Shown piece by piece: positions 16,537 through 30,360 of a stretch of 40,896 nt of DNA. Source of the stretch: a virus. Taxonomy: Duplodnaviria > Heunggongvirae > Uroviricota > Caudoviricetes. The notes beneath the pieces were generated by a model that saw only the letters and a program-made list of their open reading frames with translations, did not search any database and had not been told where the DNA came from. A program made the position numbers and the translations under genes. The stretch is from IMG/VR virus record IMGVR_UViG_2874920711_000001. One strand, given 5' to 3'. Numbering within the stretch: position 1 is the first letter of the stretch; every line of letters begins with the position of its first letter.

Positions 16537-16612
<76 letters not shown>

Positions 16613-16614
16613 AT

Positions 16615-16690
<76 letters not shown>

Positions 16691-16692
16691 CG

Positions 16693-16770
16693 CTGGCCCA
16701 CCACCGAGGACTCGAACCTCGCACCGTCAACTTAGAAGGTTGATGCTCTATCCGGATGAGCTAGTGGTGG
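16693..16770 (-). tRNA. tRNA-Arg (anticodon UCU)
   Basis: Acceptor stem ccaccac/gtggtgg, anticodon stem tcaac/gttga with loop cuTCTaa, T-loop ttcgagt, 3' CCA. Confidence 0.8.
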
Positions 16771-16847
16771 TTGGTGGCCCTTGCTGGACTTGAACCAGCG
16801 ACCTGGCGATTATGAGTCGCTCGCTCTGACCAACTGAGCTAAAGGGC
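16771..16847 (-). tRNA. tRNA with CAU anticodon, Ile2-like (would be called Met by anticodon alone)
   Basis: 77-nt cloverleaf, anticodon loop cuCATaa, T-arm resembles Ile2-type tRNAs. Confidence 0.7.
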
Positions 16848-16936
16848 CGGAGGCAGAATAATAACCATATGTCATCACATCTGCAAACTCATCTGACCAC
16901 CAGCACGTTTAACGTCCTGTGCCGTTTTTCAGGTAT

Positions 16937-17613: not shown

Positions 17614-17899
17614 AACGACCTCGCGTTTCGATGGTTTTTAACTCACCACCTGCGACGCCAATCGCTGGGTGGTGAACTGTGCAGGGTTGGCGTAACCGGT
17701 CGAAACATCCGGCGAGTCTCTCAACTCCCCCACACAGCCCACCATAAATCGCGAATGTGACTGTGCTTAGCGCATAAAAAAACCGCCAGCGCGGTTATGC
17801 ACCGTTTTGAGGTAGCCTGAGTTTAACGGACACTCCTTCCTGAAATAGAATGGCATCAGAAGGAGCTAATAATGAGCAGAAAAACCCAACGTTACTCTA

Positions 17900-19126: not shown

Positions 19127-20086
19127 ATGTGTCAGGTATTTGGTGTATCCAGGAGCGGTTATTACAACCGGGTACAGCATGAACCCTCAGACAGAAAACA
19201 AAGTGATGAGCGGCTAAAACTGGAGATTAAGGTGGCACATATCCGCACTCGCGAAACATATGGAACCCGGCGGCTCCAGACGGAGCTGGCAGAGAATGGC
19301 ATCATCGTTGGTCGTGACCGACTGGCACGTCTTCGTAAGGAGCTAAGGCTACGCTGTAAGCAGAAACGCAAGTTCAGAGCGACTACGAACCCGAACCACA
19401 ATCTGCCAGTTGCGCCAAATCTGCTGAACCAGACGTTCGCTCCTACAGCACCAAATCAGGTCTGGGTGGCGGACCTGACGTATGTTGCCACACAGGAGGG
19501 ATGGTTGTACCTCGCTGGCATCAAAGATGTTTATACGTGCGAAATTGTCGGCTACGCCATGGGAGAGCGCATGACAAAAGAGCTGACAGGTAAAGCCCTG
19601 TTTATGGCGCTCAGGAGCCAGCGCCCACCTGCCGGGCTAATCCACCACTCTGATCGAGGTTCACAGTACTGCGCATACGATTACCGGGTCATACAGGAGC
19701 AGTTTGGTCTGAAAACATCAATGTCGCGTAAAGGTAACTGTTACGACAACGCTCCGATGGAAAGCTTCTGGGGAACGCTGAAAAATGAGAGCCTGAGCCA
19801 CTATCGTTTTAATAACCGGGATGAAGCCATCTCAGTAATACGGGAATACATTGAGATTTTCTACAATCGTCAGCGTCGTCACTCTCGTCTGGGAATATCT
19901 CCCCGGCAGCCTTCAGGGAAAAATATCATCAGATGGCTGCTTAAAAAAAGAACAAATGGTAGTGTCCGCTATTGCCAGTACACCTCATTTCGATATCCGG
20001 GACGCCAATCCCGACGCCAGATTTTGCTGGCGCGTGAGGAATATAGCCCCGGATTAACGTTGTCGTCAACAGCCACTACAGGCTAA
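19127..20086 (+). pseudogene. IS600 OrfB with altered 3' end (G-run contraction at 19891-19893); reads past the IS end
   Basis: Identical to intact OrfB up to RLG, then frame changes; ORF extends beyond the IS600 terminus at 19987. Confidence 0.75.
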
Positions 20087-20120: not shown

Positions 20121-20408
20121 ATGGCTCAGGTCTATTTTGATACACTGAAGTTCGTCGAAACCTTGGAAGCCGCAGGAATGCCGGCAGCTCAGGCGCGCGC
20201 TATATCTGCCGCAGTGAAAGATTCTCACGAAGCCGCAGAAGTCGCCACAAAGCGCGACCTAAATGATGTCAGAACTGAACTAAAAAACGACATTGCAGCC
20301 CTTGATGCAAAAATAGACAAACTCAGCCTGCAACTGACCGTCAGATTTGGTGGCATGCTCGTCGTTGCTGTTGGCGCACTGACAGCCATCATCAAATTAC
20401 CTCTTTAA
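20121..20408 (+). CDS. Hypothetical coiled-coil protein with C-terminal transmembrane helix
   Basis: 95-aa ORF with good start context; C-terminal hydrophobic stretch GGMLVVAVGALTAIIKLPL. Confidence 0.5.
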   Translation: MAQVYFDTLKFVETLEAAGMPAAQARAISAAVKDSHEAAEVATKRDLNDVRTELKNDIAALDAKIDKLSLQLTVRFGGMLVVAVGALTAIIKLPL

Positions 20409-20516
20409 ATTACCAGCCCGTTCGGGGCTGGTTTACCTTACCCCAGCGGCAAATCGAATACACAACCAGCGCCACCGCCATTGCAATTCCTACCGTGGTG
20501 AATGCTTCAGGCCAGG

Positions 20517-20975
20517 TCATCGTAAAACATCCTCCACGCTTATCAGTCCATTTCGCTTCAGGTAATCCATCGCCTTCTCCGGTAATTTGCAGTCAGGCTT
20601 AGCTTTTTTCAGTTGACTGACCAGTCGTTTAACCCACATTGTTAATTCGCTAACCTGATTACTGGATGCTAGTAGGTTGTCGGCTTTACCCAGAATGACA
20701 GCACAGCAAGCCTCTTTGAGTACCCAGTCAACAGCGTCTTTCCATGCTCCTGTTTCGACTGGTGGATTCTCACGCTTTACCTGTTCATAAAAGCGCACGG
20801 CTTTAACCAGTCCTTCTGATGTCACCTGGACTGGCGGGGCAGTGAATAAGGCCTGAATTTCATAGTTCGGCCTGTCGTTACAATCCTCTTTTTTCGGTAC
20901 ATATTTCCAGTCACCAGACCACCACTTCCCCTGAAAGTCCGTAACGCCTTTTTTTTCACGTAGCGATATCGCCAT
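20517..20975 (-). CDS. Hypothetical phage protein (152 aa)
   Basis: Uninterrupted ORF convergent with 20121-20408; no family recognised. Confidence 0.45.
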   Translation of the reverse strand: MAISLREKKGVTDFQGKWWSGDWKYVPKKEDCNDRPNYEIQALFTAPPVQVTSEGLVKAVRFYEQVKRENPPVETGAWKDAVDWVLKEACCAVILGKADNLLASSNQVSELTMWVKRLVSQLKKAKPDCKLPEKAMDYLKRNGLISVEDVLR

Positions 20976-21030
20976 GCCACTGTTTTTGCTTGCCCCGCCG
21001 TTTCATGCCCTTCCTGATAATTAATCTCGC

Positions 21031-21207
21031 TCATTCATCGCCCCACTCATCACAATATGCTTCGACCGGAGTTTTTCCTGCTTCATAATCATCACGCCAT
21101 GCTTCAGCATCAGCAGCACTGCCACCACGTAACTCTGCATAGTCCATTAACAGTTCATGCCATTCTTCAAAACTGACGTTGTATTTAGTTGAACCAAAAT
21201 CAGCCAT
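21031..21207 (-). CDS. Hypothetical small acidic protein (58 aa)
   Basis: My own translation (below the ORF-track length cut-off); start ATG overlaps the stop of the upstream 60-aa ORF (ATGGCTGA). Confidence 0.4.
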   Translation of the reverse strand: MADFGSTKYNVSFEEWHELLMDYAELRGGSAADAEAWRDDYEAGKTPVEAYCDEWGDE

Positions 21208-21382
21208 TTTGTTCTTCCTCTTCGTCTTTTATTTCGTGATATGAGTAATTGCAGTAGTTAAAGAAAATATCTTTTGCTTCGTCATGTATTTCATCAGGCG
21301 TCGCATCATCATCCACTTCGAATTCATCCTCGAAATCTCCACCGGCTATTCCCGTTTCAATAATAATTTTGAACTTTCGCAT
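21200..21382 (-). CDS. Hypothetical small, highly acidic protein (60 aa)
   Basis: ORF rich in Asp/Glu (DFEDEFEVDDD, EEEEQ), translationally coupled to the 58-aa ORF. Confidence 0.4.
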   Translation of the reverse strand: MRKFKIIIETGIAGGDFEDEFEVDDDATPDEIHDEAKDIFFNYCNYSYHEIKDEEEEQNG

Positions 21383-21427
21383 TTCACTACCGCCCTTTCG
21401 GGCCTGAGGGATCCCACAAAATTACTG

Positions 21428-22601
21428 CTAATAAACCAGCACCATATTTCGGTAGGTTCTGGACAGATGGTTTAGAACTGTGCTCAGTACTGTTCGTCTT
21501 AAAATAAGTGGCGAGTGTCGAAGAACATTCTTCGCTAACGTCAGATATGAGATAACCCGCCGGGATTTAATGCTGTTAGCCTGATATTTCAGGTGTAACC
21601 CTTTATTTTCAGCGTGATAACCGAGTAACCACATTACGATAGTGCTCAACGTTGCCAGCAGACTCAGAACCAGAATTCTTCCTGTTGAACGACTTTTGCT
21701 GGCCCGAAGACCAAATCCGAAGCGCCCGTTCTTTTCATCACGAAAGTTTTGCTCTATCTGCATTCGCCGACTGTATAACTTGATGATTTCTCGCGCTCTG
21801 AAGTCATTTGTACTGCTGAAGATCAACCAGGCTTCTTTTGCTGATTTGCTCTGTTCTTTGTCTGTTTTGTTTAAACCACTCTGACCTTTCGAACGTTTCT
21901 TTTTTCGCCCTTTTGCCGATTTCTTATAGGTGTAAAAATGCCCCGGATGCTTTTTTTCCTTTCTTTAACCAGCCTTCCAGCCCCCATATATTCCGGTGTT
22001 TTACATTCAGGGCTATCCGACACTTTTAACCATCTTTCAGGCGCGTTATCGAGGCAATACTGAACGTTATTTCTGATCCGACCAATAAAATCCCAGCCCA
22101 GAGAAGTAATATGGTGAAACCATGCGCTCTGAAATCCAGCATCCGTGACAATAATAACCCTGGCATCGGGGGCAGGGATTGAGCAAGGGAATCAAGGAAA
22201 TCATGTTGTATCAATGGATTATTTTGTTTTTCAGAAGGAACAACCTTACTCAATAACGGAATGGAACGCCCGTCACACAGAAGGCTGGCACGAAGAACAT
22301 GATGCTCCTGGGAGGGATAGCCACTCCAGTCTACGGCTATTACACATAAAGATAACTGCCGTGTCAGCATTGAAGTGATATTCCTGAAAATCATTGGAAT
22401 ATCGCGATGGAGCGCCTCATTACCCATGAGGCGATCAATACGTTTGCTCTTATTCTTAACTTGTGCATTACCGGGAAAAAACGTCCGATACTGGTCAGCG
22501 TCAGAGATGCTCCGTTGATTAACACCACTGTGGCATCCATCAGGGCATTTTGTCGGTACTGATGAAATGGTGCTAAGGCATCCCGGAAGAAATTCTGACA
22601 T
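21428..22601 (-). pseudogene. IS4-family transposase remnant (N- and C-terminal parts in different frames)
   Basis: N-terminal ORF 22026-22601 has a DDE-type VIAVDWSG motif; C-terminal ORF 21428-21826 has the Y(2)R(3)E(6)K signature (YSRRMQIEQNFRDEK). Element ends not confidently located. Confidence 0.55.
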
Positions 22602-22786
22602 ACTTTATGAACAGGCATAGCAGTGATCTCATTGAATTGTTGGCACAAATCAGTAGATCACATAATGCTATGTCTGTCTCGTTTTCTGGGAATTCCTCAG
22701 CCTTTCGGGCGGCCTCCTGATGATTTGAGGGTGCAGGAATCCCTCCGGTTAAGGATTAAATTTTTAACAGTGCTAAATTTAATTAT

Positions 22787-23195
22787 TCAGTTCTGGATTT
22801 TGTCGCCCTGCGTATCCGCGCTTTCGCGTTACGCTCAATCTGTATCAGCTTTTCTATATTTCTCCGCCTTTCCTGTTCCTCCTGGCGCAATAGCCTTACA
22901 TCATCTGCCAGTCTGGTTTCTCTTTTTGCCACAGAGAGCATCCAGTCAAACGGCTCCACAACCGCACCGCAGATTTTACAGCGGACCTGACGCTCTTTTT
23001 CGTCAACCCGTACAGAGGCGTGATGGCAATATGGTCTTTCCGATGGATCATAAAGAAAATTAACCTGATTACGAGGGCATCCTCTTTTACCGGAAATAAA
23101 ACAATATTACTTAACTCATCTTCTGGTTTTATTTCCACGTCACTCTCCTTTGATGCGAATGCCTGCGGCAATTAGTGCCTGATAACTAATTTCAC
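22787..23195 (-). pseudogene. Hypothetical gene(s) with ambiguous frame; C-terminal coiled-coil and Cys/His-rich segment
   Basis: Two overlapping frames both look protein-like (ORF 22896-23171 and an adjacent frame ending at 22787); likely one gene with a frame break. Confidence 0.25.
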
Positions 23196-26174: not shown

Positions 26175-26864
26175 TCACCCAGCGCCGCCGTTCATGACCA
26201 TGCGATCCATCACCCGCTCGCCGAGCAATGTTTTCATCACCTCATAGTTCAGGTTTGTCAGCATCCCCACGCTGCGCATCGACGCTGTCCGGCGATCAAC
26301 AATCTGGTGCAGCACCACCTGCTCGTTTTTCGTCTCGCGCTGAATGCCAATTTCATCAAGAACCAGCAGATCCACTTCGCACAGCTCCCGCAAAAATTTT
26401 TCGCCTGACTGCCCGTCGTCATAGCTGGCGTGCAGGGCGCTCATAACATCAGCCACGGTAACCACAATCACTGTCTGACCGTCTTTCAGCAGGCGATTCC
26501 CGATAGCTGCCGCTAAGTGATTCTTCCCGGTACCAGGTTTTCCGCTGAACGCAAAATTTGTACACCCGGTCATCAGTTCATCGGCGATGGATTTCGCCTG
26601 GCTTAACGCGTATCGCTGGCCGTCGTTCTGCACCTGGTAATTCGCAAACGAGCATTTACGGTGCAACGGCTGGATGCCTGAGCGATTCAGAATTTTTTCC
26701 ACCCGCAACTGGCGATTCAGGCGGTTGATCTCCTCGCTACGTTTCTGGCCTTCAGCAAGTTGCCACTCGCGCCACTCCGCTACCGTTCTGAATGGGGCGG
26801 TTACATGTGGCGGGGTCAGTCGGCGGATGCGTTCCAGAACGCCGCCTGTCGCAATATTTTTCAT
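26175..26864 (-). CDS. DnaC/IstB-like replication helicase-loader ATPase
   Basis: 229-aa ORF with Walker A GKPGTGKNHLA and Walker B LLVLDEIG; start overlaps the stop of the upstream replication gene (ATGA). Confidence 0.8.
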   Translation of the reverse strand: MKNIATGGVLERIRRLTPPHVTAPFRTVAEWREWQLAEGQKRSEEINRLNRQLRVEKILNRSGIQPLHRKCSFANYQVQNDGQRYALSQAKSIADELMTGCTNFAFSGKPGTGKNHLAAAIGNRLLKDGQTVIVVTVADVMSALHASYDDGQSGEKFLRELCEVDLLVLDEIGIQRETKNEQVVLHQIVDRRTASMRSVGMLTNLNYEVMKTLLGERVMDRMVMNGGAG

Positions 26865-29672: not shown

Positions 29673-30172
29673 TTCCTTACTGGTTGTGCGAGAACTTCAG
29701 TAAAGATACCACCAAAGCCCGGAGGTGGTGAAATAAAACCGGGCACAACACGAAGGCGCATTTCCGGTATCCATAAAGAGTCGGTCTTGTCTGTTAAATT
29801 TAAATGGTGGGAGTGCGCCTCCGGTTGTAAATAACGACATTGCTGTGTGAAGTACCAGTTGGCGGCATCGGTTTAATTGCTGGCTGATGTCCGCCCTTTT
29901 TAAAGTGAATTTTGTGATGCGGTGAATGCGGCTCAGCGCACGCGGAACAGTTAAAACAGTAAGGAAAATCCCTTATTCCGGCGTTAATTATTAACTGGTT
30001 AACGTCACCTGGAGGCACCAGGCACCGCATCAACAAAGTTCACTTCGGTGATGAAAGGAAAGAGAAAATGTTGAATGTAGCTATTGAAAACCAGAACGGG
30101 TGGAATTATAGTGCACCTGCACCTCATAAAACGGGTGCCGGGATTGCTACCCCGAAGTCATTCACGGCGCAT

Positions 30173-30196
30173 AACCGCGCTCAGGCGGTTTTTTTA
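30173..30196 (+). terminator. Rho-independent terminator-like hairpin inside the early-left operon
   Basis: accgc-gctcag-gcggt stem-loop followed by T7; no convincing + strand ORF ends just upstream. Confidence 0.5.
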
Positions 30197-30360
30197 TGCG
30201 TAATGCACAGCCACATTCAAATTATGGTGGGGCGTGCGGGCAGTCGCAAGACTGGCCGGGTTCCGTGATGACCGGTTGTAGCAACCCTGTACGTCTCACC
30301 ACCCATGAGATTGCTACCTCCGGTGGTGAGTTAATCAAATTCATCGCGGAGGCTGCCATC

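Follow-up and report, generated by a model that had tools for sequence, protein, structure and literature searches.

The 40,896-nucleotide stretch deposited in IMG/VR as the Caudoviricetes record IMGVR_UViG_2874920711_000001, referred to below as the window, carries on its minus strand two small overlapping open reading frames (ORFs), orf60 and orf58 (Table 1), whose products are MRKFKIIIETGIAGGDFEDEFEVDDDATPDEIHDEAKDIFFNYCNYSYHEIKDEEEEQNG and MADFGSTKYNVSFEEWHELLMDYAELRGGSAADAEAWRDDYEAGKTPVEAYCDEWGDE, respectively. It can be regarded as almost certain that they are two independent, genuine accessory genes of lambdoid prophages, which in one lineage stand side by side as a coupled cassette. 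The orf60 protein contains 9 aspartate and 11 glutamate residues (33%) versus 4 lysines and a single arginine, while acidic residues make up 28% of the orf58 protein. The end of orf60 and the beginning of orf58 share the overlap ATGGCTGA, the whole junction reading GAAGAGGAAGAACAAAATGGCTGA, and the GAGGA motif located among the glutamate codons of orf60 is a putative ribosome-binding site of orf58. A third gene, of the phrog_660 family, follows, its start codon and the stop codon of orf58 sharing the letters ATGA. The preliminary description of this DNA had reported two overlapping frames of 60 and 58 codons with an extreme acidity, and it was accurate as to their position, content and charge: among 84 proteins annotated in three related phage regions orf60 and orf58 occupy the first two places, with a charge per residue of -0.25 and -0.21, the next protein having -0.10 and the median being +0.008. 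The overlap itself can be considered ordinary operon packing and is no proof of a special partnership, since 23 of the 67 same-strand neighbouring gene pairs in three related loci also overlap.

Both ORFs are real coding genes under purifying selection. Among the unique cassette alleles from the fetched loci, orf60 is intact in 35 of 39 and orf58 in all 34, neither of the remaining forward frames is open in any of these alleles, and the pairwise Nei-Gojobori ratio of nonsynonymous to synonymous substitution rates (dN/dS) is 0.088 for orf60 and 0.062 for orf58 (34-35 alleles). The window copy of the pair shows 100% protein identity to many database entries, and identical proteins are present in RefSeq, where the Prokaryotic Genome Annotation Pipeline describes them as a 'DUF7167 family protein' (WP_001224662, orf60) and a 'hypothetical protein' (WP_000753058, orf58); neither these accessions nor the name DUF7167 were found in the literature searched. 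The genes have thus already been catalogued as members of families without an assigned function, and the locus is an ordinary, locally degraded one that adds nothing beyond the database content.

When the 160 best IMG/VR loci matching one protein or the other were examined, 159 contained both genes. Both families were also sought with hidden Markov models (HMMs) in 282 sequences, comprising 281 fetched loci and the window; both genes were found in 237 of them, all of these being E. coli/Shigella-type cassettes, and in 236 of the 237 the spacing of the two genes is identical. The sequences bordering the pair are of 13 types upstream and seven downstream, forming 19 combinations. In intact relatives the O/P or DnaT-like/P genes are located upstream of the pair and hokD, DUF968/YdfU, RusA, and Q downstream, which bears out the nin-like location given in the preliminary description; a gene of the ead/Ea22 type or a phrog_660 gene often follows the pair. 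The cassette occupies both nin-like and exo-xis regions of E. coli/Shigella phages. ArgO145, a Stx2a phage in which the pair lies in the exo-xis/ea region, aligns with the window over 20986-21403, and the Stx2 phages match the window only at 21013-21403, with 97.7% identity. As the pair is kept across exchanged flanks and in different regions, it behaves as a separate unit of mosaic exchange, a cassette of 0.39 kb. Matches to it with a coverage of 80% or more occur in 1750 of the 5426 complete E. coli genomes, approximately a third, and its carriers include Stx2a-converting phages. A natural deletion derivative, IMGVR_UViG_651053022_000007 (L008/L231, locus 2977-3177), has lost nearly all of orf60, the first four codons of which are joined to the orf58 frame (MRKF-RKNK-MADF...); because of this deletion it can be stated that orf58 is able to persist without orf60 even inside the cassette lineage.

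The window itself is a heavily decayed Rac-like prophage of the Shigella type. Small RNAs identified with Rfam, namely RalA (the antitoxin RNA of the Rac RalR), the Shigella CssrB, and SraC/RyeA-SdsR/RyeB (37398-37576, 2079-2261, and 40290-40434), indicate a Shigella-type chromosome around such a prophage. The pair sits between replication and lysis genes, i.e., in a nin-like position, with a ydaV/IstB-like gene (26175-26864) on one side and ORF6N, a tRNA cluster, and a lysozyme gene on the other, all of them on the minus strand; apart from ydaV/IstB, ORF6N, and lysozyme, the Pfam models recognized a TrkH/trkG-like gene and several insertion sequence (IS) elements. The insertion of one of the latter, ISSfl1, occurred within a GCCC-GAAA-GGGC hairpin, and the element stands 21 bp ahead of the orf60 start codon. 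The 10-bp target site, CCTTTCGGGC, is duplicated on its two sides (21394-21403 and 22701-22710), and in the alignment to intact relatives the native sequence ends at 21403 and restarts at 22701. The transposase frame of ISSfl1 is broken into 132- and 191-aa pieces, with a DDE_Tnp_1 fragment at 21428-21826. Since ISSfl1 directly precedes the leader of orf60, it separates the pair from the promoter and the gene that originally lay upstream. A promoter and terminator scan around the pair gave results at chance level with no convincing promoter, and Rfam gave no match at the pair locus. The product of the native upstream neighbour has 137 aa and a CxxC...CxxC-like motif; the gene is intact in two related loci (L001 and L008), and its remnant, two ORFs in the window, lies at 22783-23171 on the minus strand. 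On the other side of the pair, the phrog_660 gene is split into 70- and 152-aa ORFs by two extra A residues in a poly-A run at 20950-20958, which makes it either a pseudogene or the product of a homopolymer sequencing error. Judging from this arrangement, the cassette in the window is intact but stranded, a passenger in a decaying prophage, and is probably poorly expressed or silent there.

Table 1. Position of the orf60-orf58 pair and of neighbouring features in the window.
Feature	Position	Strand	Description	Basis
orf60	21200..21382	minus (21382..21200)	60 aa, DUF7167-family miniprotein, net charge -15	ORF list and translation
orf58	21031..21207	minus (21207..21031)	58 aa, unnamed family (PHROG 519), net charge -12	ORF list
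orf60 stop/orf58 start overlap	21200..21207	minus	8 nt, ATGGCTGA	read from sequence
GAGGA, putative Shine-Dalgarno sequence of orf58	21216..21220	minus	8 nt before the orf58 ATG, within the EEEE codons at the 3' end of orf60	
Mosaic cassette	20986..21403	minus	the pair with a 21-nt leader in front and the initial codons of the gene that follows	alignments with differing flanks
ISSfl1 (IS4-like)	21404..22700	minus	full length, 1297 bp, 99.4% identical to annotated ISSfl1	
Downstream phrog_660-family gene	20517..21034	minus	both halves match phrog_660; 171 aa when intact (E. coli THO-006)	
tRNA cluster	16538-16848	minus	Gly-TCC, Thr-TGT, Arg-TCT, Met-CAT; between ORF6N and lysis genes	

The orf60 protein is a typical member of the DUF7167/PHROG 1997 family, with no difference noted. 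It matches the Pfam model PF23768 (DUF7167) with 55.1 bits (E=7.9e-15), residues 2-53 covering positions 1-60 of the 60-position model, far above the gathering threshold of 24.4 bits; membership was accepted for matches above this threshold over the full model. The match to phrog_1997 is also full-length (E=9e-31, residues 1-57 on positions 1-57 of 57). An exhaustive phmmer search among 1.84 billion cluster representatives yielded 99 DUF7167 representatives at E<=0.001, the divergent ones being mostly stand-alone proteins of 50-70 aa, and the scan of species-representative genomes gave only six DUF7167 loci. The family consensus reads MRKfkVxxETg..G...ExEVdDDATxEEIEExAkexxFN..wgw.E and is followed by an acidic tail. 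In the AlphaFold2 (AF2) model of orf60 a beta-hairpin (2-8, 17-23) is combined with a helix (29-43), with a predicted local distance difference test score (pLDDT) of 84.5, and the acidic columns fixed in the family are D19, E22, D24-26, D30, E31, D34, and D38. Two metagenomic proteins, P0234 of 105 aa and P0242 of 129 aa, consist of two DUF7167 domains in tandem; such duplications suggest that the single domain may work as a dimer.

The orf58 protein belongs to the unnamed PHROG 519 family of phage proteins of approximately 50-70 aa, e.g., CBA120 orf183 and Menlow gp173, with which it shares both the acidity and the motif FxEWHxxL..YA...GGSAADADAWREDYEAGKTPxxAWxDEWG. Its identity to the members from virulent phages is 40-60%, and the match to phrog_519 (E=4.5e-23) covers only the C-terminal part of the profile, positions 76-137 of 143. 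No Pfam model matched orf58 or 57 of its relatives, and no NCBIfam model matched either miniprotein; the label 'DUF5419' attached to the orf58 homologue of a Morganella phage was not reproduced by Pfam for that homologue or for 58 family members, and was rejected. Invariant or nearly invariant in the family are F13, W16, L20, A24, W37, D40, Y41, G44, T46, P47, and W55, and the conserved acidic columns are E15, D33, E35, D39, D40, E42, and D53. The AF2 model of this tryptophan-rich protein, based on an alignment of 58 sequences, is a three-helix bundle (13-27, 34-42, 47-55) with a pLDDT of 87.4 and a predicted template modelling score (pTM) of 0.70. The median net charge across the two families is -10 and -11, which indicates that acidity has been selected in both. 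It is a conserved trait of both families, located at fixed alignment columns.

Outside the E. coli/Shigella cassettes the two families part company. All 44 loci with non-cassette homologues, 36 from the scan of 282 sequences and eight scanned later (the deletion derivative described above was set apart), contain only one of the families within 2.5-3 kb, and the solitary family members are without any acidic neighbour. The relatives of orf58 found alone show 40-79% identity. In Enterobacter prophages, where it takes exo-xis as well as nin positions, the orf58 homologue with 79% identity follows an Ead_Ea22 gene. In P2-like prophages of Salmonella enterica (L287-L289, 3001-3189) there is an overlap between the homologue and the 3' end of gpA, a replication gene, and the homologue lies at the gpA edge of the region between gpA and gpQ, which in P2-like prophages is a defence hotspot (Rousset et al., PMC9122126). 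In one of these prophages (L288) a gene of the nSTAND/AAA_16 type is present in the same hotspot, approximately 0.7 kb downstream of the orf58 homologue. In virulent Ackermannviridae the homologue is located just 3' of the major capsid gene, and orf58 homologues were also found alone in a Morganella phage, Jilinvirus, and Koutsourovirus. The family as a whole ranges over lambdoid, P2-like, Ackermannviridae, Autographiviridae, and other phages of Enterobacterales, and a few other Proteobacteria.

DUF7167 is likewise found alone in many types of phage, among them those that infect Gram-positive as well as Gram-negative bacteria. It occurs in a Klebsiella nin-like region of the lambdoid type and in Enterococcus Herelleviridae and Phapecoctavirus; in the pL operons of P22-like phages it is located between N/Ral and cIII/Kil/RecT; in Guernseyvirinae its gene lies directly upstream of, and overlaps, a DUF2800/PD-(D/E)XK nuclease gene. 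In one setting it adjoins the gene for the single-stranded DNA-binding protein (SSB), and in a 166-kb phage contig it follows the gene of a topoisomerase subunit, near a ligase gene. An association of DUF7167 with exonucleases across phages of Gram-positive and Gram-negative bacteria was considered and rejected, as only the neighbour in Guernseyvirinae is a PD-(D/E)XK nuclease. According to Pfam, the 'exonuclease' encoded upstream of the DUF7167 homologue in the Enterococcus phage MDA2 (L166, 1971-2513) is a DUF3850/ASCH protein, and the deposited annotation is probably wrong. Adjacency to nuclease or recombination genes is a feature of some DUF7167 members but not of the one in the window or its E. 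coli relatives.

A single locus approaches the arrangement seen in the cassette. In Pectobacterium aroidearum CP084023 (L286, 2835-3177) an orf58 homologue with 74% identity shares an 8-nt ATGnnTGA overlap with the gene upstream, which encodes a different 57-aa acidic protein, assigned to phrog_8773. Only an EVxVPDTAT-like motif is common to this protein and DUF7167, and a comparison by hhalign gave a probability of 36% over no more than 17 columns, so that it may be either a very divergent DUF7167 protein or a convergent partner. Taken together, the distribution of homologues qualifies the expectation, set out in the preliminary description, that the two ORFs should be conserved as a pair: they are so in related prophages, in spite of the diversity of the flanks, but not outside the cassette clade, where each of the 44 loci is a single-family one. 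Because the non-cassette homologues of each family occur without the other, no obligate two-gene system is indicated, and the pairing appears to be a lineage-specific juxtaposition rather than an obligate two-component system.

Several other explanations of the pair have to be weighed. The possibility that the two frames are open by chance, or are what is left of decayed genes, and have no functional product might be suggested by the state of the prophage around them, with its IS elements and frameshifted neighbour, and by the lack of a convincing promoter close to the pair; virtually no credence can be given to it in view of the dN/dS values of 0.06-0.09 over 34-35 alleles with the alternative frames closed, the homologues known in virulent phages and across bacterial orders, and the confident prediction of both folds. 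This reading is excluded for both families, although a local silencing in the window genome is possible. Another proposal, according to which the two proteins work only together, as a heterodimer or in a two-step system, and are for this reason translationally coupled, draws on the 8-nt spacing that is identical in all but one of the pair-bearing sequences, on the survival of the pair through the exchange of both flanks, on the fact that both proteins are extreme acidic outliers of their region, and on the Pectobacterium locus with its acidic 57-aa protein, identical type of overlap, and similar motif. It is nevertheless distinctly unlikely: every non-cassette locus has one family only, including that of the Enterobacter homologue, which is as much as 79% identical to orf58 and follows an Ead_Ea22 gene; solitary members have no acidic neighbour; in these operons many genes overlap in any case; the protein that accompanies the Pectobacterium homologue is of a different PHROG and reached only the above 36% probability over 17 columns with DUF7167; and the natural deletion drops orf60 while keeping orf58.

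It is also conceivable, though unlikely, that DUF7167 is a phage-internal replication or recombination factor, e.g., one that regulates a nuclease, SSB, or topoisomerase of the phage or is a small subunit of it, not directed against the host, and that orf58 is an unrelated passenger. The presence of DUF7167 in phages of both Gram types implies a target that is universal or phage-encoded, and genes of DNA metabolism are its neighbours in several unrelated phages; yet the neighbours are different ones in different phages, and no partner gene is constant, the E. coli lambdoid members are grouped with the nin/exo-xis accessory genes away from the recombination genes, and most phages with the enzymes in question lack DUF7167. 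There is similarly little chance that one or both proteins are DNA mimics in the strict sense, imitating the phosphate backbone to block restriction enzymes, RecBCD, or nucleoid proteins in the manner of Ocr (gp0.3), ArdA, Gam, gp5.9, and Arn. DNA mimicry or the inhibition of another host factor was the function suggested in the preliminary description, and no result of the analysis demonstrates it. The strong acidity conserved at fixed positions in both families would fit such a role, as would the location of DUF7167 beside Ral in the P22-like pL operons and directly upstream of the PD-(D/E)XK nuclease gene in Guernseyvirinae, and the tandem DUF7167 proteins hint at dimers. T7 gp5.9 is similar in length to the miniproteins and its gene immediately precedes that of the T7 exonuclease, a position resembling that of DUF7167 in Guernseyvirinae. 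All these inhibitors are, like orf60 and orf58, small, strongly acidic, early-expressed phage accessory proteins; they differ in having no sequence or profile similarity to either protein, and none of them is among the structure matches listed for either one.

The searches against other known proteins can be summarized in a similar way. No homology or fold match of orf60 or orf58 to the RecBCD inhibitors lambda Gam, T7 gp5.9, and P22 Abc2 is present among the matches listed, and BFVD returned only uncharacterised phage proteins for the miniproteins. When both proteins and the family profiles were compared with the sequences of all PDB chains by phmmer and profile searches, nothing beyond chance or low-complexity matches emerged; designed armadillo repeats matching the acidic helix were rejected as one of the latter. 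With PADLOC neither miniprotein was matched at E<=1, their sequence motifs do not occur in the supplementary files of two screens of phage accessory genes, and no PHROG identifiers were found in an anti-defence machine-learning preprint. The small ORFs of the lambda nin and exo-xis regions (NinA-NinI; orf60a, orf61, orf63, and ea22) resemble the pair in neighbourhood, size class, and mosaic exchange, but are not its homologues; the pair should be considered an alternative occupant of these regions. Accordingly, the Pfam models of NinB/E/F/G/H, DUF1317, DUF1382, and Ead_Ea22 did not match either protein in a scan at E<=0.1.

The explanation preferred here, with a probability of roughly 0.4 as a whole, is that orf60 and orf58 are independent genes, each encoding an acidic protein binder, in a cassette stranded in the window. 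As to function, it is tentatively proposed that each protein may be an independent acidic protein-binding inhibitor or modulator. Each would act alone as a stoichiometric binder, its conserved acidic face occupying a basic, probably nucleic-acid-binding, surface of the target, which might be a host or phage protein of DNA metabolism or defence, encountered early in infection or induction. The retention of acidity across both families and the location of the genes in accessory or early regions are consistent with an inhibitor of this kind. Several considerations weigh against it. Similarity to characterised inhibitors was found for neither family, and neither has a known target, partner, or phenotype. 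Most of the residues conserved in orf58 are aromatic or hydrophobic, and their role may be no more than to build the core of the bundle. An early or accessory location discriminates poorly, as most small phage ORFs lie there, and the link to nucleases is thinner than the annotations imply, since the MDA2 'exonuclease' is a DUF3850/ASCH protein.

The two families extend to virulent Ackermannviridae, P2-like, P22-like, and even Enterococcus phages. If either of them were an inhibitor of a host factor or of defence, a large set of 'hypothetical' phage genes would receive a name, and a small, easily tested anti-defence protein would be gained. A more far-reaching and rather doubtful possibility is that DUF7167 and PHROG 519 are two new, very widespread families of counter-defence or host-takeover inhibitors with a nucleic-acid-like acidic surface. 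The target of DUF7167 would then have to be common to Gram-positive and Gram-negative hosts, e.g., a nuclease of the RecBCD/AddAB class, a restriction protein, or a nucleoid protein, and the cassette would represent a compact anti-defence island in approximately a third of the complete E. coli genomes.

It is also worth mentioning some minor elements of the window. The isrK and C4-antisense (a1b1 target) elements, corresponding to an anti-repressor control module of the P1/P7 type, were found at 17665-17749, 19944-20046, and 30119-30306; the copy at 19944-20046 overlaps the 3' end of an ORF for a 319-aa IS600-like transposase (19127-20086). Downstream of the cassette, a 36-aa hydrophobic ORF (20410-20520, minus strand) directly follows the split phrog_660 gene, and a 95-aa ORF on the plus strand (20121-20408), matching phrog_17872, has an N-terminus of the CCDC90-like/DUF1640 type and a hydrophobic C-terminal segment.
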